IMG/VR virus record: IMGVR_UViG_3300044210_000063
Length of the DNA stretch: 52,244 nucleotides
Reading direction: 5' to 3' (one strand)
Origin: a virus
Part shown: positions 22,696 to 52,244 of the stretch, piece by piece
Layout: each line of letters begins with the position of its first letter
How positions within the stretch are numbered: the stretch's first letter is position 1
Made by a program: the position numbers and the translations under genes
The notes under the pieces: model-generated
Database searches by the model: none
Told to the model about the DNA's origin: nothing
What the model saw: the letters and a program-made list of their open reading frames with translations, nothing else

Positions 22696-24150
22696 TTGGG
22701 TTTGGTGTATTATCAAAATACAATAGTGAGATTTGAGACTGGTTCACCGTATCATGGTTTCGTATACCAGGGGCCTCCGATAGACATAGGTCCGAGGGCT
22801 ATGCGGAAACTGCTATTCAGATGCCAGTGTGGCAAGGATAAGGAACTATATATCGGGGCAATTACCAAGGGAATGCAAAAAACATGCGGGGACTGCCGGA
22901 AGGTATGGGTGCGTCCGGGTGATCAATATCACCGGTTCATTTATGCAGGAGAAGCCTCATATCTGGCTCCCAACAGCTCTAAAAAGGCATTGTTCAAATG
23001 CCAATGCGGCAAGGTCAAATCAATCAGAATAAACAGTGTTACTAAAGAGCAAACTACCAGATGCGGCGCGTGCAACTTAGTGAAGCTTGATCCGGAGGAT
23101 CAATATTATTCTTTTGTCTATATAGGAGAACCAATACGAGTTCACGCGCATGGTACTTCTCGGCTGATGTTTCGGTGTCGATGCGGTAAGACTGTCACAT
23201 TGCGTATGAACGAGGTGACTTCTGGCCATCGAGTTTCGTGCGGGCACTGCAATGATTTTGTGCTGGACTATGGTGATAAATATTGTGGGTTCGTGTATGC
23301 GGGCAAACGAATTATAGTTTCGCCACGTAGCCACCAGCAACTCGATTTCAGGTGTAAATGCGGCACTATCAAGAAGATCAAGCTATGGGAGATATCTGAC
23401 GGAATAACTCGCACTTGCGGTCGTTGTAGCTATATTCAGTTGGATCCAGGCCAGTCATACTGTGGGTTCGTATATATCGGAAAACCAATCTGGCTCAGTA
23501 AATGGAGCCACCAACGGCTTTTGTTCCGGTGTAAATGTGGACAGCCCAAAAGCATCATGTTGTCGAGTTTGACGTCCGGCAATACAAAGACATGCGGTGC
23601 ATGTCGTGGAACAGTATATGAATGGTATGTTAAGAATCGTGAAATGTTGGAAGCTATGCGTGCTCCAATTACTTTGGATAGTCTGCCTCAAGGTGGAGTA
23701 ATATTCACTTCACCTATTACGAACATCGCTAAATCTACGCCTGCAATCTGTCCGGCATGCGGTGCATCTTACAAGCCAAGATTTAGCGATGTTCGTCGTG
23801 GACGATCACTGACTTGTGGGTGTGTATATAATAGAATATCATCCTATAACTATGAGATTGCTAGTCTTGTAGCTTCAGTCGGGTTCAGAGTCATGATGGA
23901 GTTTAAGCTTGGCAAGTATTCATATGATATACATGTGGAAGAGACCCCCATCCTTATTGAATATGATGGAAAGAAATGGCATGATACGCAATATGCTGCC
24001 GATCTTGATCTGCGCAAGTCAAAATTGGCAGCTGAGCATGGATATGAATTGATTCGGATTACAGAGGCTGATTGGCGGGACCATCCCGCAGAAACACAGA
24101 CTCATATTTTAAAGGTACTGTCACAGTATGCTGCTCCAACAACTGGATGA
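22696..24150 (+). CDS. paralog A of a mobile-looking family: 5 tandem Cys4 zinc-ribbon modules + Zn-ribbon + Vsr/DUF559-like PD-(D/E)xK endonuclease domain
   Basis: Five ~60-aa repeats F(R/K)CxCG-x12-VT(S/K)G-x3-(T/S)CGxC-...-FVY(A/I)G. Then CPACG...LTCGC and YDIHVEETPILIEYDGKKWHD...DLRKSKL...GYELIRI. Its 3' end overlaps the polA start by 23 nt. Confidence 0.8.
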   Translation: MGLVYYQNTIVRFETGSPYHGFVYQGPPIDIGPRAMRKLLFRCQCGKDKELYIGAITKGMQKTCGDCRKVWVRPGDQYHRFIYAGEASYLAPNSSKKALFKCQCGKVKSIRINSVTKEQTTRCGACNLVKLDPEDQYYSFVYIGEPIRVHAHGTSRLMFRCRCGKTVTLRMNEVTSGHRVSCGHCNDFVLDYGDKYCGFVYAGKRIIVSPRSHQQLDFRCKCGTIKKIKLWEISDGITRTCGRCSYIQLDPGQSYCGFVYIGKPIWLSKWSHQRLLFRCKCGQPKSIMLSSLTSGNTKTCGACRGTVYEWYVKNREMLEAMRAPITLDSLPQGGVIFTSPITNIAKSTPAICPACGASYKPRFSDVRRGRSLTCGCVYNRISSYNYEIASLVASVGFRVMMEFKLGKYSYDIHVEETPILIEYDGKKWHDTQYAADLDLRKSKLAAEHGYELIRITEADWRDHPAETQTHILKVLSQYAAPTTG

Positions 24151-26989
24151 CCGTAAGGACATCATCCGAGATTGGATGGTGGATTATAAATTCCACCTAG
24201 TTCAGACCGTTCTTCAGCTGAAGAAGCTGGTGGATTATTGCATACAACGAGGACTTTATGCCCTCGATCTCGAGACTACTGGAGTTGACAATCGAGTCTA
24301 CCAAGACGAATATTTTGAAGACGGTATCATAACTCGTCATGGTATAAGGACCATTGATAGAGTGGTTGGGGTCTGTCTATCATTCGACGGGACAAATGGA
24401 TATTATGTCCCGCTTTCTCATGAACCGGACGATTCTGGAAATTTGCCATGGGATGAATCTTGGGATGAGATCCAGAGGTTGGTGTGGAGCCAAGCACGTG
24501 CAATCTTCCATAATGCTAAGTTTGACTGCGAGTTCCTTTACCCTCTGACAAATAAGGACTTCTGGAAGAAGAATGAATATGAGGATACCTATCTTATGTC
24601 TAAGGTATCCTCACCGCTTAAAAGCCAGCCCAACGGTCTTAAGCCTCTATCCAAATTGCACTTCGGCATTGATATGATTGAGTTAGACGATCTTTTCTGT
24701 CCGGAGATGAAGATCCAACTCAAGCGTGAGAAGCAAGGATATAACTTTGGAGTACTTCATCCGCGAGAAGGTCTTGAATATGGGTGCTCAGACGGTATTT
24801 TTACTTATAAGTTATATTCAGTCCTGCGTGAAAAATTATCAGACACTGATCTACCTATTTACGATTTAGAAAAATCTTTCTGCAACATATTGCGTAAGTT
24901 AGAACGTAACCAGGTGCATGTTGATGTGGAGCGCCTAAATCAACTTGAGGTTGAGTGTCGCGCGGAATTGCAGCGTGTCGGTGATGTCATTCGTGGGATG
25001 ATTGAGAAGCGTAGTCATAACACTGGTAAATGGCTGACGCTCAATGTTGGATCTGTTCAGCAGTTATCATCAGCACTTATTACAGATCCTGAGGGTCTGA
25101 AGCTCAAGCCGACAGCAGAGATGATCGCAGAGGCAGGAGGAACTGGCGAATGGGATAGCGGCGGCGGTGGTGGTGGTGGTGGTGACGATGACGATGAAGA
25201 TGGGGATGAGGAGGAGAAAAAGAAATACTCGTTGAAAGATGAAGCTCTGAAATCTTTGCATCGAGCATATGCTGATCGTCTATCGGTGCAACGCCCTGGT
25301 GTTGTAGACAAAGATGGAAAACCAAAGCTAGATAGTCTTTTTGAACTCGTACTTGAATACCGACATTACGAGAAGATGCTCGGGTCGTTTTTAACAAAGT
25401 TATCGCGAGCTGTAGATCGGTATGGGAATGTACGACCAAATTTCAACCAAATGGGGACAGATACCGCGAGACTCTCGTCAAGGGCTGGCAAGATTGAGGA
25501 TGGATATTCTGGTATCAATTTTCAAGGAATCCCACGGGATTCCGATGAGGATAAACCAGAATTATTCAAGCAAATCAGGACGGTAATAATTCCGCGCGAT
25601 GGTTGGATACTGGTAAAGCTTGACTTCGCTGGCGAGGAACTTCGTGTTGTTACTAATCTTTCGGGTGATCCGATCTGGACAGATTCATTCTTGAACAAAG
25701 ATGGTGACGTGCATTCAATTACAGCACGTACACTGTTCGGCAAGGATGAAGTTAATAAAGACGAGCGTAATCGCGGTAAACGCTGCAATTTCGCGTTTAT
25801 TTATGGTGGGGGTGCAGGCGCGATTCAGCGCAACGTTGGTTGTTCCATTGAAGACGCCGGTAGGCACATGGAGAATCTGCGACAGGCTGTACCCGTGCTA
25901 ATGGGGTATGTTGATCATCAGAAGAGATTCGCGCATAAACATAAGTGCATTTTTACAGCTTATGGTCGGCGTGTTCCCATTCCAATGATAGATTCGCCAA
26001 TACGCGCCTTGCGTTCTAAGGCGGAGCGGTGCGCTATTAATTACACAATCCAGTCAACCTCTGCAGACGTCTTGAAATACGCAATGTGTTTTGTTGATAA
26101 GAACATCCGGGCTCTAGGCTGGGAGGACCGGGTTCGATATGTGCTAACCGTACATGATGAGGTTGTATATGAGGTTCGACCGGAATACCTCATGGAGATT
26201 GTACGTAAGCTTGATGAATGGATGACCTTTCCATGGAAGCTTCCGAAGCCACATGGCCGCGACTGGGTGGTGCCGCTTCTCACCGAGCCCGGGATTGATT
26301 GTAACTGGAAGGCTCGCTATGACTATTTCGAGATGGTGGACGGCACGCCAGTGAAGCCATCGGAGATTGGCCCAGATGGGGAGTACAAGGGTAAGCTCAA
26401 GAAGGGCCGCTACTTTGCCGATGGGCGCATCTACCAGGAGCCTCCGGACTTCCTGAAGCCGTGGATCCACCGCCTTCGGCCCCTTTCGGCCGGTCCTGAG
26501 CCTGCTCTTCCGTCCCATGAATCGCTTCCGGCTGAGCCCGGAGCCGCTGTCTTGCCTGATTTGCCGCCTTCCAAACCCGCAGAACACGGCTCATCTGGTC
26601 CGATCGATGAAGCCCCGCTCAGTAAACTCTTGCCAGCGGAGCCTATCCTTGGCTCCCTGAGCACTCTGTCGCTCTCCACGGATCCGCCCCCGCCGCTCCC
26701 CCCGCCGCTCCCCCCGCCGCTCCCCCCGCCGGCCTCTCCGCAGCCAAAAAAGGTGCAGGACAATGCCGTTACGAATACTTCGGGTGAGACCGTCTTACGC
26801 TGGACCATCCGGTCCGTGCTGAACGACATGGCGATTCGCAAGCTCAAGGCCGCGTGCCTGTTAGCACCGGGCAACATGTCGTTGCGCGTGGTACTGCCCG
26901 ATGGTAGCGTCCTCATTCAGGAGAAGAGCATGCCGTTGGTCGACAAGGATTGCTTTCTCTCGTATGCACGCTTATTGGGTATCGGGTGA
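24128..26989 (+). CDS. polA: family-A DNA polymerase with N-terminal 3'-5' proofreading exonuclease, acidic/poly-Gly insertion and Pro-rich C-terminal extension
   Basis: Exo I YALDLETTG. Motif B RGKRCNFAFIYGGGAGAI. Motif C LTVHDEVVYEV. Insertion DSGGGGGGGGDDDDEDGDEEEKKK. About 270 aa follow motif C, including (PPLP)x3. Confidence 0.9.
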   Translation: MLLQQLDDRKDIIRDWMVDYKFHLVQTVLQLKKLVDYCIQRGLYALDLETTGVDNRVYQDEYFEDGIITRHGIRTIDRVVGVCLSFDGTNGYYVPLSHEPDDSGNLPWDESWDEIQRLVWSQARAIFHNAKFDCEFLYPLTNKDFWKKNEYEDTYLMSKVSSPLKSQPNGLKPLSKLHFGIDMIELDDLFCPEMKIQLKREKQGYNFGVLHPREGLEYGCSDGIFTYKLYSVLREKLSDTDLPIYDLEKSFCNILRKLERNQVHVDVERLNQLEVECRAELQRVGDVIRGMIEKRSHNTGKWLTLNVGSVQQLSSALITDPEGLKLKPTAEMIAEAGGTGEWDSGGGGGGGGDDDDEDGDEEEKKKYSLKDEALKSLHRAYADRLSVQRPGVVDKDGKPKLDSLFELVLEYRHYEKMLGSFLTKLSRAVDRYGNVRPNFNQMGTDTARLSSRAGKIEDGYSGINFQGIPRDSDEDKPELFKQIRTVIIPRDGWILVKLDFAGEELRVVTNLSGDPIWTDSFLNKDGDVHSITARTLFGKDEVNKDERNRGKRCNFAFIYGGGAGAIQRNVGCSIEDAGRHMENLRQAVPVLMGYVDHQKRFAHKHKCIFTAYGRRVPIPMIDSPIRALRSKAERCAINYTIQSTSADVLKYAMCFVDKNIRALGWEDRVRYVLTVHDEVVYEVRPEYLMEIVRKLDEWMTFPWKLPKPHGRDWVVPLLTEPGIDCNWKARYDYFEMVDGTPVKPSEIGPDGEYKGKLKKGRYFADGRIYQEPPDFLKPWIHRLRPLSAGPEPALPSHESLPAEPGAAVLPDLPPSKPAEHGSSGPIDEAPLSKLLPAEPILGSLSTLSLSTDPPPPLPPPLPPPLPPPASPQPKKVQDNAVTNTSGETVLRWTIRSVLNDMAIRKLKAACLLAPGNMSLRVVLPDGSVLIQEKSMPLVDKDCFLSYARLLGIG
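26690..26725 (+). repeat. 12-bp x3 repeat CCGCCGCTCCCC encoding (PPLP)3 in the polA C-terminal extension
   Basis: Seen directly, in frame. Confidence 0.8.
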
Positions 26990-28767
26990 AGCTGTTCGTT
27001 GTTAAAGGGGATAGGGCAGGGAGCCTGACATATGCGGGTGACAGGTCGGAGCTTAGCACGTGCAGCCTTAAGAAAGACCTGTTCCGGTGCGCATGCGGCA
27101 CGGTGAAACTTTTCCGTACTGCATATGCATACTCTGGCAGGAGCAAGACTTGCGGCGAGTGCCATGCACGGCCCGCCGAATGGTGGGATCGCAAGTTCGG
27201 CAGTCTCAGGCTGGCTGTTCCAGTCAAACTTCACGAGTTTTCAAACAAAAGAAAAGATTTTCGGTGCGACTGCGGCAGAGTATTGGCGCTCAGAGTAAGC
27301 CATGTTACGTCCGGACTGCAGCGGACGTGCGGCTGCTGCCAGCTCATGGGAGCGTCTTGGTGGGAAGCCAGCGTCTTCGGCCAGCTCCGGTTGGCTGTTC
27401 CTGAGGATTTGCACGTTGGGTCCAATCAAAAGAAACAATTCCTCTGCAGTTGCGGGCGAGTCAAACGGCTGCCGGTATATGCAGTGGTCGCGGGCCGCGT
27501 GAAGACCTGCGGCGAGTGTAATGTGAAACCCGCCGAATGGTGGAAAGGCAGAGTATTCGGTCGCCTATCAATAAACCAGCCCGAGCCACTGACTTTTGGA
27601 TCCCATGAACGCCGCATGTTCCAGTGCGGCTGCGGGAATCAGTGCATAGCACGGGTGAACTTGGTTACAAGCGGCAAAAAGCTGTCCTGCGGGAGGTGTC
27701 GGGACCAGGTGCATGGTTGGTACCAAGACAACCTTTCCAAGTTGGCTGCTATGCGGTTCCCCATAGCTCCGCAGGACATGCCGATCGGCGGTCCGAGGCC
27801 GCTGGAAACGATTTTAAACAGAAGGAGCCCGTTCCGGGCTGTGTGCCCCATATGTCAGTCCGAGTATGCGCCTCGGTGGGAGTTTATCAAGAGAGGAATA
27901 TCACTTACATGTGGATGTGCTGGCGGGGTCTCGTCGACCCAGAATCGGGAGGTGGCCGGGTTCATCCGTCAGCTTGGGGTTGATCTAGTTACGGAATATC
28001 CGGTCGGGAACAAGCGGTTCGACATATTCGTGCCGTCCTGCAATCTATTGATTGAGTTGCAAGGGTTGCACTGGCATTCCCAGATCGGAGCGCGGCAGCG
28101 AGACCGAGAGAAGTATGGGGTGGCTGTACAGGCTGGGTATCAGTTCATGGCCTTCTTTGAAGATGAGTGGAGACATGCGCCGGAGAAGGTGAAGGCTTTG
28201 ATTCACAACCGGCTGGGTTTAGTTCACAGCATCAAGCTGCGTCCCCCTCAGTGCGGGATCCACCCGGTCCCCTCACCGGAGGCCGATCCCTTTTACGACA
28301 GGTTCCACTACATAGGGCCCTGCAGGCCCAAGGTCTCCTATGGGGCTTTTCTCCGGGATCGCCTGGTGGCTTGTATCTCCTTCTCCCACCCGACCAGGCA
28401 GTCCAGGCACCCATGGGAATTGGTAAGGATGGCTTCAGATCCGGAGTATAGGGTCCATGGGATCTGGAGCAAGCTTCTGAAGATTTTCTGCACTGAGTAC
28501 AGACCGGAATCCATAGTCTCGTTCTCGGATAACCGCCTTTTTTCAGGTGGAGTCTATGAAAGAATAGGCTTCTCCTACGATGGGGACGTTCCTCCGGATT
28601 ACTACTGGGTGAAGGGACAACGCAGGTTCCACAAGTCCGGCCTCAGGAAGAAGGGAGAGGAGAGGGTTTCCGGGCTCACCGAGGCCCAGCTCAGAGAAGC
28701 TCAGGGGTACCGGAAGATATGGGACCTTGGGAAGAAGAGATGGGTTTTTCGTTGGGCTGACGATTAG
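26950..28767 (+). CDS. paralog B: 4 zinc-ribbon modules + Vsr-like nuclease + C-terminal GNAT-like domain
   Basis: Repeats FRCACG...TCGEC etc. RFDIFVPSCNLLIELQGLHWHS. C-terminus LVRMASDPEYRVHGIWSKLL...FSDNRLFSGGVYERIGF resembles GNAT motifs A/B. The whole gene is GC-rich relative to the background. Start uncertain; the ORF-track TTG overlaps polA by 40 nt. Confidence 0.8.
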   Translation: MLSLVCTLIGYRVKLFVVKGDRAGSLTYAGDRSELSTCSLKKDLFRCACGTVKLFRTAYAYSGRSKTCGECHARPAEWWDRKFGSLRLAVPVKLHEFSNKRKDFRCDCGRVLALRVSHVTSGLQRTCGCCQLMGASWWEASVFGQLRLAVPEDLHVGSNQKKQFLCSCGRVKRLPVYAVVAGRVKTCGECNVKPAEWWKGRVFGRLSINQPEPLTFGSHERRMFQCGCGNQCIARVNLVTSGKKLSCGRCRDQVHGWYQDNLSKLAAMRFPIAPQDMPIGGPRPLETILNRRSPFRAVCPICQSEYAPRWEFIKRGISLTCGCAGGVSSTQNREVAGFIRQLGVDLVTEYPVGNKRFDIFVPSCNLLIELQGLHWHSQIGARQRDREKYGVAVQAGYQFMAFFEDEWRHAPEKVKALIHNRLGLVHSIKLRPPQCGIHPVPSPEADPFYDRFHYIGPCRPKVSYGAFLRDRLVACISFSHPTRQSRHPWELVRMASDPEYRVHGIWSKLLKIFCTEYRPESIVSFSDNRLFSGGVYERIGFSYDGDVPPDYYWVKGQRRFHKSGLRKKGEERVSGLTEAQLREAQGYRKIWDLGKKRWVFRWADD

Positions 28768-29048
28768 CCGTGGCTCTGCCCGGTGCCTGGGCGGACAGTC
28801 GTGGCTGCCTCCAGCTGGCGCTCGAAGTCATTAGCCGCTTGTTCATATCCAGCCGCTGCTGCTACTAGTACGGCCAGACCGTGCTGCACTATAGCTTGTT
28901 GTTCCTCATCCAAACTTTTGCTCAGTAGCAGATGTCGCTCACGAACAATAAGGTCGTGTATCCCCTCGCAAATTTGCCGGGCTCCAAGCCCCTTTGCCAC
29001 AAGCAGAATGTCGCATTTCAGTTCTTCAGGCAGTTCGAACTCATTCAT
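28764..29048 (-). CDS. small hypothetical protein (94 aa)
   Basis: Occupies the gap between paralog B and the dCTP deaminase. The alternative + strand reading here is low-complexity and not credible. Confidence 0.4.
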   Translation of the reverse strand: MNEFELPEELKCDILLVAKGLGARQICEGIHDLIVRERHLLLSKSLDEEQQAIVQHGLAVLVAAAAGYEQAANDFERQLEAATTVRPGTGQSHG

Positions 29049-29093
29049 TAATTATAAGACACAGTACTTTTCGAGAGTGGGTGTAAAGTTGGA

Positions 29094-29763
29094 AATGCAA
29101 TACGGCGTACTCTCTGGCAGTGAAATTCTTCGGACCATCAAGACTGGCGAAATAGTAATTGATCCGTTTGAAGTAGACAACATCAAGTACGAAGATCGTA
29201 TCAACTCTGCATCATACGACCTGACCCTTGGTCCACATGTGGCGGTGTATTCATCCGTAGTAACTGCTGACTGGGGATGTCGTATAGGCGGTGTGCCTGG
29301 TGAGCGTGTACGCGTGGACTGTCAGCATTTGAAGCTTCCACCGGTGCCCTGTCTTGATGCAGCACAGGAAAATCCTGTGGAGCGTTATGAAATGGATAGT
29401 CGTGGGTTCATGCTTATGCCAGGCATAGGTTACTTAATGCACACAGTTGAACGTATTGCTACAAACAAATATATTCCGATTATCGATGGTAAATCATCAA
29501 TTGGTAGGCTTTTTTGCTTTGTACATGTAACGGCGGGTCTTGGTGATCCTGGGTTTGACGGCCAGTATACGTTGGAGGTATTGGTTACGCATCCACTAAT
29601 CGTATACCCAGGCATGCGATTCTGCCAGATTCGGTTTTTTACTATTGTTGGGGAGGCACAAAATTACCAAAAGGCTGGACATTATACAGGCAAACTTGCT
29701 ATAGGCCCAGTCCCATCGCGCTCATGGACACAATTTTCAGTGCATGAAAATAATCACAAATGA
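29094..29763 (+). CDS. dcd: dCTP deaminase (dUTPase-fold)
   Basis: GKSSIGRLFCFVHVTAGLGDPGFDGQYTLEVL matches E. coli Dcd [31 protein letters not shown]. The ORF-track start 28783 adds about 100 aa of Ala/Ser/Cys-rich sequence, judged spurious; ATG 29094 gives 223 aa. Confidence 0.8.
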
Positions 29764-30110
29764 TTCAATGTGATTTCCCAGAATGTGAAGCTGAGGCTGA
29801 CTGTATGTTGATTTTACATACTCCAGCTGGAATATACCCAACTGGAGTATACCCAGCTGGAGTATGCCCAGCTGGGTATTCAGCATCTTCAAATAGACAA
29901 ATAACGCGGGCAATAGCTCGACATACGGAATCTTGGCTTCCACACGAGATCATATTTGTTCGCTGTGTTGCTCATGAAAACCCAATACTTCCGGGAACAC
30001 CGCTAACTAAAGCTCTGACATCAATACCCTTCCACCTTAGTAAATTGACTCTTGCTATGGGAATGAAAATTTACGGGACCCAATTGGCTAAGGAGGTTCA
30101 TGACACCTGA
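29760..30110 (+). CDS. hypothetical protein with PAG(I/V)YP tandem repeat
   Basis: ATGA overlap with dcd; 15-bp x4 in-frame repeat at 29823-29882. Confidence 0.5.
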   Translation: MIQCDFPECEAEADCMLILHTPAGIYPTGVYPAGVCPAGYSASSNRQITRAIARHTESWLPHEIIFVRCVAHENPILPGTPLTKALTSIPFHLSKLTLAMGMKIYGTQLAKEVHDT

Positions 30111-36722: not shown

Positions 36723-36968
36723 CTATTTTCTGTGAACGGTCTTGACTACTTCTTCACGAATACGCTCAAGACCAAGTATTTCCGGGAAAGATAGTGAATT
36801 GCTTTGGATGCCATTAGCATGTTGGATCACTAACTTGTCGCCGGGTGACAGTCCTAGGCGAGTAAGAAGCCGCGCAATCAGAACCTCTTCGTCGATATAA
36901 GGACTATCCCACGGAGTGAACTTCAACGATTCGTTGTGTTGATTGGCTTCTTGACTTGAAATTTTCAC
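36723..36968 (-). CDS. hypothetical protein (81 aa)
   Basis: ATGA-coupled downstream of paralog C. Confidence 0.45.
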   Translation of the reverse strand: MKISSQEANQHNESLKFTPWDSPYIDEEVLIARLLTRLGLSPGDKLVIQHANGIQSNSLSFPEILGLERIREEVVKTVHRK

Positions 36969-38563
36969 AGCTTTGAGTTTCTTTTTTGAAGGAGCCTTGT
37001 TACTAATGGGCCGCCATAATACCCAGCAAGGGCACGGGTTTCGACGATTTTAGCTTTTTCGCTAACTACCCTTATTAAATCAATATCAGTGGTGTAGGCC
37101 AGAATAACAGCGTAAATCAAGCTATCGGCGATTTCGGACTCAATGGCGGCTTTCTTCGCTTCAACCGTGTCACCGTTCCGAATGGCTCGCAGTAGTGCAC
37201 CAGCAAGTTCGCCCGATTCACCGACGAGGCCTAAGGCATAATAAATGAATGGGTCGTTACCATATGCCGCGTCAGGATCCATATTTTTGACTCGACATAT
37301 AACATGGTGCGCATTGATAGCTGCAGTAACAATATCTTCGTAGGAGTGTCTTAGTTCGTGGATTAAGGCATCTCGCCGCTTTATTAATGCTGCCTCGGTT
37401 TCTTCTGGCAGGCTGATTTGCATGATTTCGCTGATTTCATCCAGTTTTGCCCTGAGTTCTGCCTTAGTTCGATAGCTTCGGCCGATTCGTTTTCGTGTGT
37501 CTAGCTCCAACAGGAGGCTCTGCATAACGCTTTTTTTATTATGTATCCAGTCGTTTTCCTCTATGGTGAGGAATTTCAGCCCACTCACTTCGGCCAAGAA
37601 CCGCTTCTTAGTGTTCCGCCTTCGCGCGTCGTTGGACCGGTTGAACTCGATAAGCGTTTGAGACTCGTTGACGAACATGTCATATTTATGTCCGTAGAGC
37701 TTGTGCTCAAATACCACTGAGTAGCCATGCGCAATAAGCTGGTCAGCGATGCGATAGCATGGTATGGGTATTTGGTAATCCGCACAGCCGCACGTCAGCC
37801 CATGGCCTCCTTTGAGCCTGCTGATGGACGGTGTGTAAATACTACCACAAATAGGACATTTTGCCTTGAATCCCTTTGAATTTGTTAATATGCGTCCGAG
37901 CGGAATTGGTCCACCGGGAGGGAAGTTTTTGGGCTCAACTGGTGCCCGTAACGCCTGCAGCGCTTGCCGATTCTTATTATACCAATTTCGCACTGTTCGA
38001 GAGCAATGTCCACAATTGCGGGTACGTCCGGAGGTCACTGACTGAATCGATATTTCTTTCTTGCTGCCGCAGTCACACAGAAACATCGTCTTTTGTTTAG
38101 CGTGGCGATTGAGAGCACGGGGTGTTTCCAGCCGAAGGCATCCAAACCGCTGACTAGTCCACCATTCTGGATCCATCTCGTTGCATCTGCCGCATGTCAC
38201 AATTTTGTTGTGTACTACGTCGTAGATGGCTATTAGTTGCTCTTTACCACAATCACAAACAAACAGTTCTCTATCTTTACTGCCAGTACTTAACTGTTTC
38301 GGATGCCTGAGTCGCAGTTGACCGAACTTCTGTGTGATCCACCACTCCTTTGGCATTATACTGCATTGTCCACATGACTTGGTTTGGCCACGGGTGACAG
38401 ACGACACTTGCACGGTTTTATGCTTGCCACATTCGCAGACAAACACATGCTTTGCATGCGAATGTGGATTTAAATCCACTGGATGCAAAATGCGCAGCTT
38501 GCCAAACTTCTGTAGCGCCCACCACTCCTTGGAGTGAACTGTAGCACGCTCTCTAATAGTCAT
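36965..38563 (-). CDS. paralog C: 3 zinc-ribbon modules + Vsr-like nuclease + C-terminal MazG-like NTP pyrophosphohydrolase domain
   Basis: Repeats FVCECGKHKT...SCGQC etc. YDMFVNESQTLIEFNRSNDARRR. C-terminus ALGLVGESGELAGAL...ESEIADSLIYAVILAY is MazG-like and replaces the GNAT-like domain of paralogs B, D and E. Confidence 0.8.
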   Translation of the reverse strand: MTIRERATVHSKEWWALQKFGKLRILHPVDLNPHSHAKHVFVCECGKHKTVQVSSVTRGQTKSCGQCSIMPKEWWITQKFGQLRLRHPKQLSTGSKDRELFVCDCGKEQLIAIYDVVHNKIVTCGRCNEMDPEWWTSQRFGCLRLETPRALNRHAKQKTMFLCDCGSKKEISIQSVTSGRTRNCGHCSRTVRNWYNKNRQALQALRAPVEPKNFPPGGPIPLGRILTNSKGFKAKCPICGSIYTPSISRLKGGHGLTCGCADYQIPIPCYRIADQLIAHGYSVVFEHKLYGHKYDMFVNESQTLIEFNRSNDARRRNTKKRFLAEVSGLKFLTIEENDWIHNKKSVMQSLLLELDTRKRIGRSYRTKAELRAKLDEISEIMQISLPEETEAALIKRRDALIHELRHSYEDIVTAAINAHHVICRVKNMDPDAAYGNDPFIYYALGLVGESGELAGALLRAIRNGDTVEAKKAAIESEIADSLIYAVILAYTTDIDLIRVVSEKAKIVETRALAGYYGGPLVTRLLQKRNSKL

Positions 38564-40060: not shown

Positions 40061-40786
40061 TTGATAGACCGTACCCGTGTGACCATCACCCTTACGTTCC
40101 AGATTCCGTCCACAAACGTGCATCCGGTTGCCGCAGTGATGGACCTTACTGATGACCGGCCTTTGATTGGTTTGAGTCCTCCGCAGGTCGATGGTCTTGA
40201 CCTGCGGGAAGACGATCTAGTACTTAGGATCGTGCCTGATCAGATTGAGACGGGACCGTGGGTAGCTCATGCGGGTTTATGGACTCGTCCTGACTGGTTT
40301 AATGCCAGCGCTTATGCGGAAGGAACGATTCTCACCTGTAATCGTGGCACCAAATACCGCGGATCGGCATGGGCTATGCGGGGGACTATTCCCGGTCTTG
40401 ATATTGTGGGCACTGATTTCTTATGTGCCGATCCATTCTCAGGTCCTACAGGTCCAACAGGACCTCAGGGGTATCCGGGGACTACTGGAGGTGTAACTGG
40501 ATCAACGGGGCCACAGGGTGCCACTGGATTACAAGGAGATCCAGGTGTTACAGGTGCCACTGGACCACAAGGTGCCACTGGACCACAAGGTGCCACTGGA
40601 CCACAAGGTGCCACTGGACCACAAGGTGCCACTGGACCACAAGGTGCCACGAGCATATTACCGAGTGGAAGCGCTGGCGCTATTCTTTACAATGATGGTT
40701 CACAGTGGATTATACTGCCCTCTGGGGCTTCTGGAGCTGTACTCACCGCTCAGGGGGCCACGGGGCCAATTTGGGCGTTCTTGTAG
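40061..40786 (+). CDS. collagen-like triple-helix repeat protein (putative fiber)
   Basis: [29 protein letters not shown]...(GATGPQ)x5, Gly-X-Y over about 80 aa. 18-bp x5.5 DNA repeat at 40553-40651. Confidence 0.8.
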
Positions 40787-40896
40787 CGCTTGCTGCGAAA
40801 GTGGATCTATCTGGTGGTACCAACTCACCACCATCTGCCACAGGAATTACCGCACTCTTGTGGCACAAGGATGGACTATTATATTAAATCCGTGAA

Positions 40897-41337
40897 TCAG
40901 GGTGTTGGTAGTTCGTCTGGAACGATGTCTACTTCTTTGCCCCCAGTGCGGAGGTATGTGTCGGCGAGAGACTCCCCCTGATGTTTTAGTCTTTGGAGCT
41001 GGATTATCAAGGTTGGTAGGTCTAACCCTATCATATCCGCAGCGGCTCGCAATACACGGACTGTTTTCTCAGGGTCTTCTATCGTAGCAGCAAATGACAC
41101 CGCGTCCATTGCTGCTTTGGTTTTCCAAACACCTTCTTTGTCTAGTTCGAAGAGATCTATACCACCGTCCGGACATACCCCGAGCCACTGATCGTTTCGG
41201 AGTTCCACTGGATTTGTCATTTGAAATGAGCAGCTAGTGTCTGCTGGACCTTCGCGTGTGAAAACGCCGGTCGGAGTTATGATGAACCTCGGTACATATG
41301 GCGGCGTTTGAATGGGACCATAACCATTGACTATCAC
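40897..41337 (-). CDS. hypothetical protein (146 aa)
   Basis: ATGA-coupled minus-strand ORF. Confidence 0.5.
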   Translation of the reverse strand: MIVNGYGPIQTPPYVPRFIITPTGVFTREGPADTSCSFQMTNPVELRNDQWLGVCPDGGIDLFELDKEGVWKTKAAMDAVSFAATIEDPEKTVRVLRAAADMIGLDLPTLIIQLQRLKHQGESLADTYLRTGGKEVDIVPDELPTP

Positions 41338-43867: not shown

Positions 43868-44449
43868 ATGAAACTGCTGAAAGCTCTTTGGCTACCACTG
43901 TTTGCTTCGACCTTATTGTTGGCGCTTCCTGCGGTCGCTGAAAAGAAGTGTGATGGGCCGCCAGATCTTTGTGCGCAGGTCGTTGAGCTTCAGAGACAAC
44001 TTGCTGTTCAAAAAGCTACCAGCCTTCAAGGTGAAGCTGAAGCAGTCAAGGCGGAGGTTCAAGCCGCCGACCAACGACTCGCAGAAAAGGCAGCAAAGTT
44101 TGCTGCAGTTGCTGCAGTAATTGCTGTCGCACTAAAAATATTTTTGTCTGCTCTTGGTGGATGGAAGGACTATTTCACTACAACGAAGGGTAAGGCATGG
44201 TTAAGGCTCATCACCCTCATTGTAGGCTTCCTCGCATTTGTTGCTACAAATCTAGGACTCGGGATCGTATGGTGGCAAGCACTTATTGTGGCCGCTGGTG
44301 GTCCGGGTGCCATTCTGGTACATGAGGTCCTAAAGATCATTCCAGCACTTAGAGGTAAAGGTCCACTTCCTCCGTCCGTGGTTACAAATTCACCTGCTGT
44401 AGCATCTACAGACGTGATTCAATCACAACAGGATGAATCATCTACTTGA
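43868..44449 (+). CDS. secreted/membrane protein: signal peptide, coiled-coil, two TM helices
   Basis: MKLLKALWLPLFASTLLLALPAVA signal, heptad-like QLAVQKATSLQGEAEAVKAEVQAADQRLAEKAAK, then two hydrophobic helices. The ORF-track start 43790 has an implausible leader. Lone + strand gene in a minus-strand block. Confidence 0.5.
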   Translation: MKLLKALWLPLFASTLLLALPAVAEKKCDGPPDLCAQVVELQRQLAVQKATSLQGEAEAVKAEVQAADQRLAEKAAKFAAVAAVIAVALKIFLSALGGWKDYFTTTKGKAWLRLITLIVGFLAFVATNLGLGIVWWQALIVAAGGPGAILVHEVLKIIPALRGKGPLPPSVVTNSPAVASTDVIQSQQDESST

Positions 44450-45753
44450 GCAATAGGACGTTTACAGAACGGACAGATAGGTATTGCGGCAAGTTCTCGT
44501 TCCACAGTTTCTAGTTCGTTTGCAGCTTGGTCTAGTTCTTTTTTAACAGCCGCTTCCTCGTTTCTAATAGTTCCAATGGTGGTTATGTGTGCCTGAATTT
44601 CGGCCAAAGGCAACGAACCCATTTTTGGTACTGCAATTTCATGAATATGTGCAAACAATGTACATAATTTTGTTGCAGCCGCAAGCGAATCTTGTATAGC
44701 TTGCATTTTGCGCAAATCTTGTAAATTGCATTCAGGCAGCAATAATTCATTCATGTTTTCAATTTGACTAAGCACATCTACAGTTTTCTGTGACTTTTTT
44801 ACTTTAGCAAAACCTTGTAACCTCTTGAGGTTTTGGTACTCAGCTTCTGGTGGTTCAATGACTATTACGTCTTTGACTTTGCGTAATGGTAAAACCTGTT
44901 CCGCAGCAGATTGTAGAACATCTTGCCGTGCTCGCATTTCCCGCATTTTAGTCAAATTCTGATTCACAATTTCAAAATCGGGAATGCGTATTGAACGCAT
45001 TGGGTGAAACAGTGCTATAATAATATTGAGGCTTTGTATATTTTGCAGCATATAGGACATGCTTGCAATTCTGGCCTCGTAGTCATCAATAGATGCGCGC
45101 TGTTGTTCAAGCTCCGTTTGTACTCGATTCAGTATTTCAAGCGGTTTGAGTTTGTTAGCTCGGGTCTGATTTGCCGCCAAAGCGGTTTCTTTTGCTTTGG
45201 CTTCGTCCTGGTAACGTCTCTTTCCTCTAGCTGCAAGCACAATGGCATTTTGTACCACTTCGAGATGGGAGACCTCTGATATGAATCCTGTGACCTGAGG
45301 TCCAGGCCTGTTCAGCAAGAAGATAGGGTTATATTGGTCTGCTGTCCACGGTGACAACCTGTCATCTCCGACATTGATCGAGCCAAACCCCATAGCTTCA
45401 ATCTGAGATAGTTGTGTCTGTCCGGTTTTGTCGTATACTGTTTCATTAATCACATACCGATTTATATCCCGTTCACCTTTCTCCCATTTAAAACCCCACC
45501 CATCCGAGTTTATTTCAACTGTGCAGTATTTACTGCCTTTTCGAACCATGCCTACGACTGGGTTGTTGAGTATCGCTCTTGTCACAGCCCGAAGCACTGC
45601 GCTTTTACCCACATTTGTGGGTCCAGTAATAACAGTAAAGCCATGTACCACGAAATCAACATCTTTGATGCTCTGGAACGATTGTATTCTCACATGAACG
45701 GGATGAGGTTTTTTAGTCAAACTTTGTGTGGGAGTTTTATCACATGATTCCAC
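44419..45753 (-). CDS. SMC/Rad50-N-like P-loop ATPase with long coiled-coil ending at a CPFC zinc hook-like motif; no C-terminal ABC half
   Basis: Walker A GPTNVGKS near the N-terminus, about 250 aa of coiled-coil, C-terminal AIPICPFCKRPIAQ. Confidence 0.65.
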   Translation of the reverse strand: MESCDKTPTQSLTKKPHPVHVRIQSFQSIKDVDFVVHGFTVITGPTNVGKSAVLRAVTRAILNNPVVGMVRKGSKYCTVEINSDGWGFKWEKGERDINRYVINETVYDKTGQTQLSQIEAMGFGSINVGDDRLSPWTADQYNPIFLLNRPGPQVTGFISEVSHLEVVQNAIVLAARGKRRYQDEAKAKETALAANQTRANKLKPLEILNRVQTELEQQRASIDDYEARIASMSYMLQNIQSLNIIIALFHPMRSIRIPDFEIVNQNLTKMREMRARQDVLQSAAEQVLPLRKVKDVIVIEPPEAEYQNLKRLQGFAKVKKSQKTVDVLSQIENMNELLLPECNLQDLRKMQAIQDSLAAATKLCTLFAHIHEIAVPKMGSLPLAEIQAHITTIGTIRNEEAAVKKELDQAANELETVERELAAIPICPFCKRPIAQVDDSSCCD

Positions 45754-45827: not shown

Positions 45828-47177
45828 TTATTCAATTAGTTCCAAATTGGAACTAAGGGATGATTCGTCTATCCCCATGGTTTCTGCTGGAACTACTTCG
45901 GGCGGTTCTGAAGAACCATAATCCTGATCCATAGCATCGTCTGTGTTTCCACCTGCGACGGACATGGCATCTTCAGCCAGCTCGGCTAACTCTTCATCGC
46001 TTATATAGCGCAGCCCCTTAAGAATGTGTTCGACGCATAGATTACTGAGCTCTGCATATACTTTCGGCTGTGCTACCATGGCAGCTCGGAACTTCTCAAT
46101 GCCGATGGTTTCGATTTCTCCGGCACTGGAATGGAACCGAAATATATCTTGTTTCTTAGCATTCTTACTTTTCTTCACAATGTCGTATGCGATGGCTACG
46201 TTTAGCATTGTACGTAGCTCATCAATACCCACCCCATAGCGAATTGTGATAAGCCCAGAATGCCCGGTGCGTGCATCAATTTTATTTTTAATATTTTTGA
46301 TTTCCACATCCGTAGCAATCGGCACTTCTTCGTAATCTCTAGTGAGCGGGTTCCACCGTTTGGCTTTAACAGTCTGTTTTGGCTTCAACAAGACACGGTT
46401 CGATGACCAGAACTTCAGCGCGTTGCCGCCAGTAGTCGTCTTAAGGGCCTCTTCACTGAACCCAATAGCCCCAATTTTATCACGTGTTTGATTAAGAAAC
46501 ATCACGTGAGTACCGGTGTTCGATATGATGGATTGGAGCTTCGGCATCCAATTGGACATGAACCGTGGAACCTCAGCAATGCCTTGTTTTTCCTTCTCAT
46601 TCAAGACATTGCGTTCCCCTTCCCTCTTTGGTTGCAGACCTGCGACTGAATCGATTACTATAAAATTTATGCCTTGGATCGCCGCAGCATTCACGATTGC
46701 CTCGACTTCTTCGGCAAATCTAGGTGCTACACGGATAGCTCGTCCAGTTCCACCAAGTTCTGGTGGACGAAAGTCCGCTCCGAGTCGCATCGCATAAGCA
46801 TCAACAACTGCATGCTCGAGGTCAACGTATAATCCGGTTCCAGTTTCATTATTTGCTTGGAGTGCATGTCCAAGACCCATAAGCGCGATAGTAGATTTGC
46901 CTGAAGACTCACGGCCATAAATCTCGCTGATACGCCCGCACGGCCATCCGGGGCAGACGAATGATCCATCATCAAGCCTTGTTCCGCCGATGAGGAGATT
47001 TAGTACAGTCGAGCCAGTATTAATATACCCCAGGTTGCGATTCCATTCGACAACCGTATCCCGTAGGTTCAGGCGTTTCTCCAGGGTTGTTAGGAACCCT
47101 GCCATCTTCGGATGCCACTTGATTGGAGTGCTTTTTGACATGATTGATACTACACCAGACCCATCTCGTCTTTCCAA
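45828..47177 (-). CDS. recA: RecA/UvsX-like recombinase (divergent)
   Basis: GRISEIYGRESSGKSTIALM (compare GRIVEIYGPESSGKTTL), FIVIDSVAGL, TTGGNALKFWSS, NKIDARTG. The annotated 5' end overlaps paralog D by ~157 nt; the true start is probably an internal Met (47141 or 47105). Confidence 0.85.
   Translation of the reverse strand: MERRDGSGVVSIMSKSTPIKWHPKMAGFLTTLEKRLNLRDTVVEWNRNLGYINTGSTVLNLLIGGTRLDDGSFVCPGWPCGRISEIYGRESSGKSTIALMGLGHALQANNETGTGLYVDLEHAVVDAYAMRLGADFRPPELGGTGRAIRVAPRFAEEVEAIVNAAAIQGINFIVIDSVAGLQPKREGERNVLNEKEKQGIAEVPRFMSNWMPKLQSIISNTGTHVMFLNQTRDKIGAIGFSEEALKTTTGGNALKFWSSNRVLLKPKQTVKAKRWNPLTRDYEEVPIATDVEIKNIKNKIDARTGHSGLITIRYGVGIDELRTMLNVAIAYDIVKKSKNAKKQDIFRFHSSAGEIETIGIEKFRAAMVAQPKVYAELSNLCVEHILKGLRYISDEELAELAEDAMSVAGGNTDDAMDQDYGSSEPPEVVPAETMGIDESSLSSNLELIE
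45836..45856. promoter_or_regulatory. perfect palindrome TTAGTTCCAA-A-TTGGAACTAA (10-bp arms, 1-nt centre) at the recA 3' end, upstream of the ATPase gene
   Basis: Seen directly. The 1-nt spacer rules out a stable hairpin, so a dimeric protein-binding site is more likely. Confidence 0.35.
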
Positions 47178-48723
47178 AGTCCCATATTTTCCGATATCCC
47201 TGAGCTTCCCGCAACTCCCTCTCCGTCATACCTGATGCTTTTTCAGTATTCTTCTTCCGCAGAGACGACTTATGAAATCGCTTTCCTTGCTTCACCCAGT
47301 AATAATCGGGTAGAACTTGTCCATCACGTTGGAATCCCATCAAGCCGTAAACGGACCCTGTATATAATCTATTATCAGAGAAACTGACGATTGAGTACGG
47401 GGAGTGCTCTTGGATGAATATGTGAAGAAGCTTCGACCAGATACCATGTACTCGGTATGCTGGATTAGAGGTCATGCGCACTAATTCCCACTGATGCCTT
47501 GACTGTCTTGTAGGATGCGATAGGGACAGACAGGCGATCATAGATCCATTGAACAACACAGAATAGGATATTGTGGGTCGGCATGGTCCAATGTAATGGA
47601 ATTCCGCATGGAACCGGTCAGCTGTTGCAAAATCGACTGATTTAATGGAACACATGGTAGGACGCAGCTTGATGTGTTTGCTGCGACCGAGCCGATTACA
47701 TAATAGCGCCTCCACCTTTGTTCTACTGTGACGCCATTCATCCTCAAAGAGAGCGATGAACTCATATCCACTAGCAACAGCAGCTTTATACTTCCTGAGG
47801 TCTCTATCCCGTGAGTCTCTCGATGAGTGCCACCGTAGCCCGTTGAATTCTATGACTATGCATAAGCTCGGTATACCTATATCATATTTCCATTCTCCTA
47901 TGCTGTGTTCAAACACAGCTTGGATTCCAAGTGATGTGATAAACTCAATTAGTTGGTGCACCGGAGCTGACGTTTTATGACTAGTGCATCCGCAGGTGAG
48001 TGAGACTCCTCGTCTAATATTTTTCAGCAAAGGCTTGTATTCGAGCCCGCATAGTAGGCAACGTGCGCGAAATGGAACTGACAAACCAATAATGGGTTCC
48101 AGCGGCAGCATTGCGCCTGGCACGAAGTCGGTCGGGACAATCGGACATTTAAGCGCCATTAGTTCGTTGCGATGGCGCTCATACCACTGATATATATGAT
48201 CCCAGCATTTGCCACAAGAAGCAGTATTTCCCGTTGATACGGAATAGACGGCGGCATCTGTTTCATTACCACAGGTGCACACCCAGGTCAGTTTTTGGTG
48301 TGACTGCGGGAGTATCTTTTGCGGTCGTTTTATGTGCAGGTGCCCAAAGACCTTGTCTGTTGGATCAAATTCGCTGCATTTGCCACATGATGTCGTACGA
48401 CCTTGCACCACGGATTCGATCCTGGCCGTGGTTGTGTGTCCACATTCGCATACCCACCTGACGCGTTTACTCGACCCAGGCAGCGTATCAATAGGCATGC
48501 ACTGGCGGAGTTTTCCGAACCTACGAGTCGCCATTTCTGCTGCCGAAATCGTGCTACATTTACCGCACGATTTCGTATGGCCGGACAACACCTTGCGCAC
48601 CTCTGCCTGGCAAGTGCGTCCACATTCGCATGCCCAGATGACTTTGCGCCCTGATCCCTGGGTAACCTCCAGTATTTCTGTGCTGTGCAGACTACCAAAT
48701 CGGTCTTCTGGCACGACGATCAT
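47020..48723 (-). CDS. paralog D: 3 zinc-ribbon modules + Vsr-like nuclease + GNAT-like domain
   Basis: WACECGRTCQ...SCGKC repeats. KYDIGIPSLCIVIEFNGLRWHS. C-terminus LVRMTSNPAYRVHGIWSKLL...YGLMGF. Confidence 0.8.
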   Translation of the reverse strand: MIVVPEDRFGSLHSTEILEVTQGSGRKVIWACECGRTCQAEVRKVLSGHTKSCGKCSTISAAEMATRRFGKLRQCMPIDTLPGSSKRVRWVCECGHTTTARIESVVQGRTTSCGKCSEFDPTDKVFGHLHIKRPQKILPQSHQKLTWVCTCGNETDAAVYSVSTGNTASCGKCWDHIYQWYERHRNELMALKCPIVPTDFVPGAMLPLEPIIGLSVPFRARCLLCGLEYKPLLKNIRRGVSLTCGCTSHKTSAPVHQLIEFITSLGIQAVFEHSIGEWKYDIGIPSLCIVIEFNGLRWHSSRDSRDRDLRKYKAAVASGYEFIALFEDEWRHSRTKVEALLCNRLGRSKHIKLRPTMCSIKSVDFATADRFHAEFHYIGPCRPTISYSVLFNGSMIACLSLSHPTRQSRHQWELVRMTSNPAYRVHGIWSKLLHIFIQEHSPYSIVSFSDNRLYTGSVYGLMGFQRDGQVLPDYYWVKQGKRFHKSSLRKKNTEKASGMTERELREAQGYRKIWDFGKTRWVWCSINHVKKHSNQVASEDGRVPNNPGETPEPTGYGCRMESQPGVY

Positions 48724-49445
48724 GGCTGGCTCTCAAGGTCCTCCAGAAATTTCAGTAGTTCAGCCCGTATCGCTGATTTTTTTGGTAGGCTAACTGAGCC
48801 TTTAGGTACACGGCTTAGTTCAAAAAACCGGCTGTTTTCACGGAAAACATGCCCGATCCGTCGTGTTTTAACTCCAGTCAGCGTCTTAGCCTTTCTGGTC
48901 TTTAACAAAAACACGCGTTGCTCTGCTGGTGTAAGAACCGTTGGCGTTATGGAACCGTGGACAAGTTCAATGAGTCGGGCCGCAAAGAGAGCCGCCAAAT
49001 AAGCATCTGCCTCATTATTATCAATTACAGTAGGATCCATGGTATCGCGTTGCACGACCCGCTGCATGTCGAGCTTTGACATGTCACCTTTTTTCTTCAG
49101 GGGATCCCCTTTTGCGAGTGATTTCAGCGTTGATGGATCAAATAGCGCACAGTCTAGACGAGCTTCGAATGCTGGTACAAGCGAAAACATCATGAGACCA
49201 AAGTGAATTGTTTGAAACGGTCCTGCATGATAAGCCGGGCTTTCTATTCCAATAGCCTCCGGACGATATTCCTCGATCAGACTGGCTACGAGTGACTGGA
49301 AATGTAAAAACCGAGCCACCGGAACTGTCGAAGGCAAAGTACCTTCATGACCACTTGCGACTCTGCGGGCTAAACCGGAGGCTGTGGATTCGTGTACAGC
49401 CCAACCATAGGCCAGCAAGCTAGGATCGAGTCCTAGAGTTCGCAT
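48720..49445 (-). CDS. ruvC: RuvC-like Holliday junction resolvase
   Basis: LGLDPSLLAYGWAV (Asp-7 motif), IGIESPAYHAG (Glu), VIDNNEADAYLAALFAA (compare RuvC DADAADALAIAL). Confidence 0.7.
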   Translation of the reverse strand: MRTLGLDPSLLAYGWAVHESTASGLARRVASGHEGTLPSTVPVARFLHFQSLVASLIEEYRPEAIGIESPAYHAGPFQTIHFGLMMFSLVPAFEARLDCALFDPSTLKSLAKGDPLKKKGDMSKLDMQRVVQRDTMDPTVIDNNEADAYLAALFAARLIELVHGSITPTVLTPAEQRVFLLKTRKAKTLTGVKTRRIGHVFRENSRFFELSRVPKGSVSLPKKSAIRAELLKFLEDLESQP

Positions 49446-50048: not shown

Positions 50049-50068
50049 TACGATTCTCGTAAAGGGTA

Positions 50069-51847: not shown

Positions 51848-51848
51848 A

Positions 51849-52244
51849 CTATGCCCTCTGGTAAACCCATCTCTTCTTCCCTAGATCCCAGATCCTACGG
51901 TATCCCTGGGCCTCTCTTAGCTCTCTTTCAGTCTTCCCTGAAGTTCTTTCCTCTCCCCTCTTCCTCAGGGAGGACTTATGAAACCTACGACCTCCCTTCA
52001 CCCAGTAATAATCAGGAGGAACTTCTCCATCATACTTGAAACCCATTTTCTCATAGACTCCTCCTGAGAAGAGTCGATTATCACTGAATGAAACTATGGA
52101 GGTAGGAGAATATTCTTGGCAAAATACCTTCAGGAGTTTACTCCAGATCCCATGAATTCTGTACTCCGGATCAGAGGCCATTCGAACCAATTCCCAGTCA
52201 TGTGTAGATTGTCTAGTTGGCCGAGAAAAACTGATACAAGCTAC
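51849..52244 (-). CDS. paralog E, partial: GNAT-like C-terminal domain of the zinc-ribbon/Vsr family; N-terminus lies beyond the window
   Basis: The frame stays open to the window edge (...VACISFSRPTRQSTHDWELVRMASDPEYRIHGIWSKLLKVF...), about 80% identical to the paralog B C-terminus. GC-rich. Confidence 0.7.
   Translation of the reverse strand, partial: VACISFSRPTRQSTHDWELVRMASDPEYRIHGIWSKLLKVFCQEYSPTSIVSFSDNRLFSGGVYEKMGFKYDGEVPPDYYWVKGGRRFHKSSLRKRGEERTSGKTERELREAQGYRRIWDLGKKRWVYQRA

Follow-up and report, generated by a model that had tools for sequence, protein, structure and literature searches.

Probable free-standing homing endonuclease genes of the Hef-like EDxHD family, several with a Mom-like domain, in an uncultured jumbo phage

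The prototype of the Hef-like homing endonucleases, Hef of the T4-related phage U5, cleaves nrdB and homes (Sandegren 2005, as cited in the review PMC2988022), and F-LimX of the Dickeya phage LIMEstone has been classed as Hef-like (PMC3296691). Taylor et al., 2011 placed the Hef-type proteins in the Vsr-like EDxHD family of homing endonucleases (PMC3239194), and a 2025 paper set apart, within the homing endonucleases, a 'large unrecognized outgroup' of proteins in which three to five CapR/DUF4379/DUF723-like domains of ~60 amino acids (aa) precede a nuclease of the EDxHD/Vsr-like type (PMC12350094). Fusions of a restriction endonuclease (REase) domain to Mom are reported from jumbo phages, five of them in PA5oct, by Iyer, Anantharaman, Krishnan, Burroughs & Aravind, 2021 (PMC7824862). 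Here we consider IMG/VR virus record IMGVR_UViG_3300044210_000063, a stretch of 52,244 nucleotides (nt) referred to in full as the window, in which five genes (copies A to E) carry all or part of an array of zinc-ribbon modules, an EDxHD-type nuclease and a Mom-like domain. With a probability of roughly 0.8, we judge these to be free-standing Hef-like EDxHD homing endonuclease genes of an uncultured jumbo phage, lodged in intergenic junctions beside conserved genes for replication, recombination and nucleotide metabolism.

The preliminary description of this DNA could not place the domain combination in a known homing-endonuclease family, a statement that no longer holds. PHROG 559, a profile of 607 positions, matches at full length with E-values of 1e-62 to 1e-64: residues 43-600 of copy B align to its positions 90-599 (1.3e-62), and copy D matches at 1.3e-64. 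PHROG 3339, annotated 'homing endonuclease', spans the nuclease and the Mom-like domain (B 1.4e-59, D 8e-59, copy E in Table 1), and copies A and C match over the array-plus-nuclease part only. When B was compared by tblastn with 50,697 phage genomes, 413 records matched, many annotated 'Hef-like homing endonuclease'. They include Campylobacter phages of the CP30A/CP81 type with 8-11 places each, PA5oct-like Pseudomonas phages (Deifobo, Cassandra) with five places each, AR9/PBS1, Klebsiella 1611E-K2-1-like phages and F-LimX of the Dickeya phage LIMEstone. A phmmer search of 1.84 billion cluster representatives returned 18,009 at E<=1e-3, 12,945 at E<=1e-10 and 929 at E<=1e-30; the full three-part architecture was found in at least 154 clusters, mostly at 38-49% identity and with coverage of at least 92%, and several of these lie on contigs 130-380 kb long. 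For the closest homologue of the Mom-like domain, P0074, an exact look-up gave no record, and that of copy D gave one 4.8-kb Logan contig of the same phage. Among 185,579 species genomes the subfamily had two matches only, both on short contigs of metagenome-assembled genomes, and it appears to be essentially phage-borne, with no sign of a cellular home. Judged by these matches, the window genes are new members of a known and very large Hef-like/EDxHD family (~13,000 representatives at E<=1e-10), and each of their domain pairings (REase with Mom, zinc array with EDxHD nuclease) is already published, as is experimental evidence for homing by Hef (2005).

The Hef-like genes of isolated phages (U5 Hef, Acj9, LIMEstone1 F-LimIII/VII/VIII/X, and those of Campylobacter CP220/CP81-type phages and AR9/PBS1) resemble the window copies in being free-standing beside conserved genes and often multi-copy; their nuclease and C-terminal domain align to B at residues ~274-601, and PHROG 559 and 3339 are common to both. 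They are, however, only 24-33% identical to B, and the window copies have longer zinc-module arrays, most isolate-phage matches aligning only from B residue ~240-320. The nuclease fold of I-Bth0305I (PDB 3R3P) is common with B, and the composite E-D-x-H-D residues are kept in A, B and D, but I-Bth0305I lies in a group I intron inside recA, binds DNA through NUMOD/helix-turn-helix (HTH) elements and is without a GNAT domain, whereas the window copies are free-standing, with zinc-module arrays and mostly with a Mom-like domain. The arrays described in 2025, followed by an EDxHD-like nuclease of ~100 aa, correspond exactly to A, and also to the N-terminal two thirds of B, C and D (PMC12350094). 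Those systems differ from the window copies in that phage introns of groups II and I encode them, and their description mentions no Mom domain. An Rfam scan of the window found no group I or group II intron or other RNA family, and the copies are therefore taken to be free-standing, not intron-encoded.

A megablast of 24 kb of the window against the 50,697 phage records gave no match, and hence no close cultured relative is at hand. The polymerase, a sigma-like protein and RecA retrieved the relatives used here, a clade of uncultured jumbo phages whose contigs reach 427 kb and whose proteins are 46-86% identical to those of the window. When viral contigs were scanned with single sequences, neither recA nor the protein of 44419-45753 gave a match, and the RecA relatives came from an alignment-based recA query. 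Among the resulting loci, labelled L, L040 is the L006 contig again, and L008-L014 are seven loci on five distinct contigs. As gene order is conserved in these relatives, insertion could be examined site by site.

Set against all relatives sampled, each of the five copies is an insertion. Copy A was absent from 18 of 18 loci covering the DnaJ-polA site; DnaJ abuts polA in all but L003/L006, where the gap is filled by a different Hef-like gene on the opposite strand, encoding 504 aa and 26% identical to B. Copy B was absent 3' of polA in all 19 covering loci, among them those of the closest relatives L042 and L043 (polA 86% identity), and polA is followed there directly by dcd or by the homologue of the gene at 30100. 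The endonuclease part of copy C was missing from L008-L014 and L029, and in 13 relatives' loci the homologue of the gene at 48720-49445 directly abuts recA, leaving no copy D. At the site of copy E, no Hef-like open reading frame (ORF) was found upstream of the homologue of 51032-51847 in the relatives' loci. Other Hef-like copies lie elsewhere in the relatives: downstream of recA (L027/28), in the gap between the homologues of the genes at 50069 and 48720 (L023, where another copy lies farther along), behind the homologue of the gene at 44419 (L026), beside the helicase (L004) and in L031. The earlier view of the family as selfish and homing-endonuclease-like gains from this, all five copies being absent at matching sites in every covering relative while other copies occur elsewhere, a pattern such as free-standing homing endonuclease genes would leave. 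Syntenic conservation of all copies, which the preliminary description had named as refuting this view, was not seen in these relatives. Hotspots seem to lie around recA and polA, where different Hef-like genes sit at different junctions, and sometimes at one junction on the opposite strand, in different relatives.

The nuclease had been described as Vsr-like with a PD-(D/E)xK core, and profile matches and structural superposition both bear this out. Pfam MTES_1575/DUF559 matches A, B, D and C with E-values of 5.5e-11, 2.9e-9, 5.9e-7 and 7.4e-5, respectively. An alignment of B, D and 60 database homologues (62 sequences) was used as a profile, and its sole significant sequence match in the PDB was the catalytic domain of I-Bth0305I (3R3P, E-value 1.1e-5), which places YDI, IE(Y/L)xG and WH on the I-Bth0305I catalytic positions. 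An AlphaFold2 model of B built from the same 62 sequences (mean predicted local distance difference test score 91.4) superposes on 3R3P by Foldseek with a template modelling (TM) score of 0.82-0.83 and a root-mean-square deviation of 2.5-2.8 A over 96-97 residues. In B the EDxHD catalytic residues are E349, D358, H376 and D385, and E369 lies in the IE(Y/L) strand. Across the 62 homologues these positions vary little or not at all, and the residues are present in A, B and D. The motif IE(Y/F)(D/N)G..WH...D..R, which had been attributed to every copy, is intact in A, B and D, and in C the G..WH segment is deleted and the next Asp is Asn.

All five ORFs of the preliminary description were recovered (Table 1), and tblastn found no further copies or fragments of the five proteins within the window. 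Zinc modules were counted with the regular expression CxC(x16-20)CxxC at a period of ~59-60 aa, and the three to five modules proposed for each gene were found in A to D; copy E enters the window with its last 131 aa only, and its array lies outside. The spacing C-x-C-x(19)-C-x2-C occurs in 395 of 461 modules, and the Cys residues of three B modules are invariant in the 62 homologues, those of the first module nearly so. Pfam DUF4379, a treble-clef zinc finger, matches D above its cut-off (49.7 bits vs 24.5), A below it (15 bits), and 49 of the 62 homologues. The extra zinc knuckle, CPxC...LTCGC, was likewise found in A to D, and its four Cys are nearly invariant in the 62 homologues. When the modules are aligned, a conserved scaffold (KFG.L...P...S.KK..W.C.CG......V..G...SCG.C) is interrupted by high-entropy positions at +7, +9, +11, +12 and +17, and these hypervariable positions would be compatible with base reading and prove nothing.

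The C-terminal GNAT fold proposed for B, D and E is supported by matches to GNAT or Mom models and by the structure search, which points to a closer kinship. With the B model as query against the PDB, the first Foldseek match is Mom of phage Mu (8BV8, E-value 6e-6, 195 aligned columns), followed by generic GNATs, and the position of Mom's HTH-like insertion is taken by helices 562-584 of the model, flanked by its last strands (551-560 and 588-601). The domain is thus, on the predicted structure, more specifically Mom-like than a generic GNAT. The putative active-site residues of Mu Mom are H58, Y59, R111, S124, D149, R151 and Y159 (PMC13219725, 2026), and six of the seven have putative counterparts in B (H58/Y59 in H453/Y454, R111 in R493, D149/R151 in D527/R529 and Y159 in Y536), all invariant in the 62 homologues except D527 (>=90%). 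In Pfam, B and D match generic GNAT models only; the Mom model matches 33 of the 62 homologues at E<=1e-3, the best at 1.5e-8. Beyond this structural match, the conserved putative active-site equivalents and the helical insert, the two proteins differ: sequence identity between Mu Mom and the window domain is only ~16-25%, and Mu Mom is a stand-alone dimeric enzyme with short-motif specificity, whereas the window domain is tethered to a nuclease and a long, putatively DNA-reading array (PDB 8BV8; PMC13219725, PMC7261163).

Median identity of the homologues to B is 68% in the Mom-like domain, 43.5% in the nuclease and 33.6% in the zinc array, and by this measure no other part of the protein is as conserved as the Mom-like domain. 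Such strong conservation fits an active enzyme. The domain is most likely an active DNA-adenine modifying enzyme, by analogy with Mu Mom dependent on Gly-tRNA. A conceivable role would be to shield the DNA of the carrier, either against the nuclease of the element itself or against those of the host.

The GNAT-like domains had been described as about 80% identical between copies, which fits the pair B-E (83%) and not D-E (72%) or B-D (71%). Ongoing duplication or gene conversion had been proposed on this basis; the five genes would then form a resident paralogous family that grows within this genome through recent duplication, its GNAT domains held similar by gene conversion. Mom-like domains 71-83% identical, in at least five copies within 30 kb, speak for such a history, but it is scarcely credible on the nucleotide evidence. 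Third-codon-position identity between the Mom-like domains is 40-46% (B-E 46%), and identical codons are used at 39-47% of conserved residues (B-E 47%); as synonymous sites are saturated, recent duplication is refuted for the window. Mom-like domains of unrelated metagenomic contigs are moreover up to 84% identical to B (median 68%), the paralogues are 32-47% identical overall while each window copy scores higher against foreign homologues, and GC content at third codon positions (GC3) is 0.65 in B vs 0.44 in E. The similarity of the Mom-like domains is, on these comparisons, attributed to purifying selection on separate old lineages.

Copies A and C depart from the full architecture in different ways. 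A was rightly said to have no Mom-like domain, but this does not look like an original variant: each of its closest homologues (P0076, P0103, P0110 and P0085) runs on for another ~190 aa that form a Mom domain, and A is therefore considered a truncated copy that lost the domain secondarily at the polA junction. For C, a MazG-like C-terminus was reported, and weak matches to MazG were indeed found in ORF C (36965-38563, minus strand), namely Pfam MazG (16.8 bits vs a cut-off of 22), Pfam MazG-like and PHROG 229/3301. It is, however, no variant of the family. Stand-alone mazG-like orthologues of 153-188 aa adjoin the HD-domain gene in L008-L014 without any endonuclease; they start at about C residue 347-368 and align to C ~350-532 at 35-42% identity over the aligned C-terminal stretch, with invariant E/D motifs. 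C is accordingly read from these alignments as a decayed copy with a predicted dead nuclease, fused in frame to the resident mazG. Ribosome-binding-site inspection for a mazG start within ORF C gave nothing of use, this phage being without a consistent Shine-Dalgarno signal. Most relatives that cover the site keep the mazG-like gene paired with the HD-domain gene (38560-39225, minus strand), which encodes a YfbR-like 5'-deoxynucleotidase; dcd (29095-29763) is present in some relatives only (L010-L013, L042, L043).

The copies are tightly packed against their neighbours, and the overlaps with core genes reported earlier were all seen. A overlaps polA by 23 nt; the probable GTG start of B at 26986 overlaps the polA stop as GTGA; the ATG of C overlaps the stop of the upstream HD-domain gene as ATGA, and that of D the stop of its upstream gene in the same way. 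The conserved part of D ends at 47155 without a stop codon belonging to the gene, and its last ~44 codons read 122 nt into the 5' end of recA, the start of which is placed at ATG 47141 because the RecA proteins of relatives align from residue 12-13. Tight operon packing with start/stop overlaps (ATGA/GTGA) and the in-frame fusion of C, with its dead nuclease, to mazG would also suit domesticated DNA-binding or regulatory proteins, whose zinc arrays serve as transcription or replication factors for the adjacent genes while the nuclease and GNAT domain are vestigial. We consider this very unlikely, since catalytic residues are conserved in the nuclease of A, B and D and, putatively, in the Mom-like domain of B, D and E, and 0 relatives keep a copy at the same site, so that no conserved local function is needed.

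A further trace of mobility may be preserved around copy B, in a GC3-rich tract of 2.6 kb (Table 1). Background GC3, taken from 193 sixty-codon blocks, has a mean of 0.425 (standard deviation 0.08, maximum 0.683). Change-point analysis puts the left edge of the tract inside polA, at 26221, with GC3 of 0.43 to the left and 0.67 to the right; blocks of the polA tail reach 0.75-0.80, above all 193 background blocks, copy B itself stands at 0.65, and the tract fades ~90 nt past the B stop. None of nine relatives shows a GC3 jump in polA (0/9, differences -0.06 to +0.03). A Pro-rich polA tail was considered as the cause and rejected: non-Pro codons of aa 721-953 have GC3 of 0.71 vs 0.43 for aa 1-660, and no relative shows the jump. 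Orthologous polymerases of the clade range in GC3 from ~0.27 to ~0.9 (e.g. L044, Ga0315277_10282799, and L005/L008/L009), which makes a GC-richer donor plausible. This spread is very wide for proteins that are 55-86% identical. Compositionally, the tract looks like B together with co-converted flanking DNA, a recent arrival from such a donor. At its fading edge, between B and the dcd start (ATG 29095), lie a 94-aa ORF (28764-29048, minus strand) and a spurious 5' extension of dcd (28783-29094, plus strand).

The favoured explanation, free-standing homing endonuclease genes, may be set out as follows. In a co-infecting relative that lacks the element, the variable zinc-module array would recognise a long DNA site located within the conserved neighbour gene or next to it; the site would be cut by the EDxHD nuclease, and recombinational repair would copy the element with its flanking DNA into the cut genome. 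The GC3-rich tract would be the trace of one such repair event with a GC-richer donor. The copies appear to stand at different stages of a life cycle: B as an intact recent arrival, D and E as intact copies whose composition has been ameliorated, A as one that lost its Mom-like domain, and C as one that lost both this domain and two catalytic residues and is fused to mazG.

A different role has been given to proteins of this kind. Iyer et al., 2021 describe the same combination of an REase-fold endoDNase with a Mom-family GNAT in jumbo phages, and interpret them as conflict systems akin to restriction-modification, without taking up homing, insertion polymorphism or decay (PMC7824862). Applied here, the five genes would be single-chain modules in which Mom modifies the phage's own adenines and the nuclease attacks unmodified DNA of the host or of a superinfecting phage, the paralogues widening the range of sites. 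This is possible, if somewhat unlikely. The view was put forward for exactly such a fusion, five of which occur in PA5oct; conservation in the window proteins is highest in the Mom-like domain, which keeps the putative Mom active-site residues, and the family, with its 12,945 representatives at E<=1e-10, is very large and hardly known outside phages. Four observations, however, are hallmarks of mobile homing genes: presence and absence vary at tight intergenic junctions beside conserved genes; a junction, or one close to it, may hold another member of the family in a relative; A has decayed by loss of Mom, and C by loss of Mom and of nuclease function; and DNA of foreign composition extends into polA. 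The prototype Hef was moreover shown to home (as cited in PMC2988022). The two readings are compatible, as marker exclusion of competitors belongs to the biology of free-standing endonucleases.

Several points weigh against the homing explanation. Element-plus and element-minus junctions could not be compared, third-position identity being 0.25-0.47 even for L042 and L043 (polA 86% aa identity); with synonymous sites saturated against all relatives, junctions are not comparable at the nucleotide level and no target site can be derived. No donor for B was found, and the GC3 tract is purely compositional evidence, of a kind to be expected after lateral transfer of any sort. With hhalign, Mu Mom is matched only weakly (E-value 0.11), the S124 equivalent being ambiguous and in an indel, and the Mom matches of the window copies fall below the Pfam gathering score (PF25680; copy E 22.1 vs 27.1 bits). 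Strong purifying selection on the Mom-like domain is unusual for a purely selfish element and fits the restriction-modification-like view of Iyer et al., 2021 at least as well. Copy A, finally, keeps an intact nuclease without a Mom-like domain, and Mom is therefore not required to tolerate the nuclease.

A more speculative version, unlikely in our estimate, joins both activities in a single-chain mobile element. One zinc-ribbon array would direct Mom-type adenine aminoacyl transfer, giving the carrier immunity, and EDxHD cutting of unmodified competitor alleles at the same long site. If true, this would be a homing endonuclease with built-in epigenetic self-immunity, and its repeat-array specificity, with few hypervariable positions per module, might be reprogrammable.

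Table 1. Positions of the five endonuclease gene copies, their predicted parts and neighbours in the window, and of Hef-like genes in loci of relatives
Feature	Sequence	Position	Strand	Content
Copy A	window	22696..24150	+	five zinc modules, zinc knuckle, EDxHD/Vsr-like nuclease, catalytic residues intact; without Mom domain
Copy B, complete	window	26950..28767	+	likely start GTG 26986; four zinc modules, knuckle, EDxHD nuclease, Mom-like GNAT domain
Copy B zinc modules (four)	window	about 27007-27705	+	
Copy B zinc knuckle	window	27832-27924	+	
Copy B EDxHD nuclease	window	27925-28224	+	
Copy B Mom-like GNAT domain	window	28237-28752	+	
GC3-rich tract	window	26221..28860	+	last ~256 polA codons, all of B and ~90 nt downstream; 2.6 kb
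Copy C, endonuclease part	window	37525..38563	-	three zinc modules, zinc knuckle, degenerate nuclease; without Mom domain
Resident mazG-like gene (C-terminal third of ORF C)	window	36965..37524	-	possible own start ATG 37525
Copy D	window	47020..48723	-	three zinc modules, zinc knuckle, nuclease, Mom-like domain; conserved part stops at 47155
Copy E, C-terminal 131 aa (Mom-like domain) inside the window	window	51849..>52244	-	Pfam Mom 1.4e-4; PHROG 3339 9e-35
Family-A DNA polymerase (polA)	window	24128..26989	+	between copies A and B; Pfam
recA	window	45828..47141	-	Pfam; listed ORF 45828-47177, true start ATG 47141
Hef-like gene	L023	5488-7233	-	
Hef-like gene	L023	14618-16132	+	
Hef-like gene	L027	5924-7777	+	
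Hef-like gene	L026	10457-12232	+	
Hef-like gene	L003	4480-5994	-	

Several other features of the window deserve mention. The DnaB-like helicase (13854-16727, plus strand, 957 aa) has an apparent intein with a LAGLIDADG endonuclease domain (Pfam LAGLIDADG_3 8.6e-16; Intein_splicing 4e-5). Helicase orthologues in relatives have only ~495-505 aa, and the intein seems present in the window phage alone, where it would be a sixth selfish element. The 865-aa product of 16879-19476 (plus strand) matches the Major Vault Protein shoulder domain (PF11978, 6.9e-28) and the vault repeat (PF17795, 4.7e-9), which is unusual for a phage. The polA product carries a Gly8/Asp-Glu-rich insert at residues ~345-365 and, past the Pfam polymerase domain (end aa 728), a Pro-rich linker and small C-terminal domain at ~760-953; the length is conserved in all relatives (902-957 aa), and the C-terminal extension therefore belongs to the polymerase of the clade. 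A second stretch of raised GC content covers 40200-41000 (local GC 0.53-0.55), around an ORF at 40061-40786 (plus strand; GC 0.551) that may not be a real gene; as its GC3 is only 0.41, the anomaly is unlike that of B.

The window offers a clean natural life-cycle series of Hef-like elements within one genome. New here are the absence of all five copies from relatives, the co-conversion-like tract that reaches from B into polA, the fusion of C, with its dead nuclease, to mazG, the secondary loss of the Mom-like domain from A and the explanation of the similar Mom-like domains by purifying selection. The best-conserved part of a supposedly selfish gene is its Mom-like domain, which could serve self-immunity, anti-restriction cargo or another role, and with the mechanism of Mu Mom (Gly-tRNA donor) solved in 2026, the role of this domain is now directly testable.

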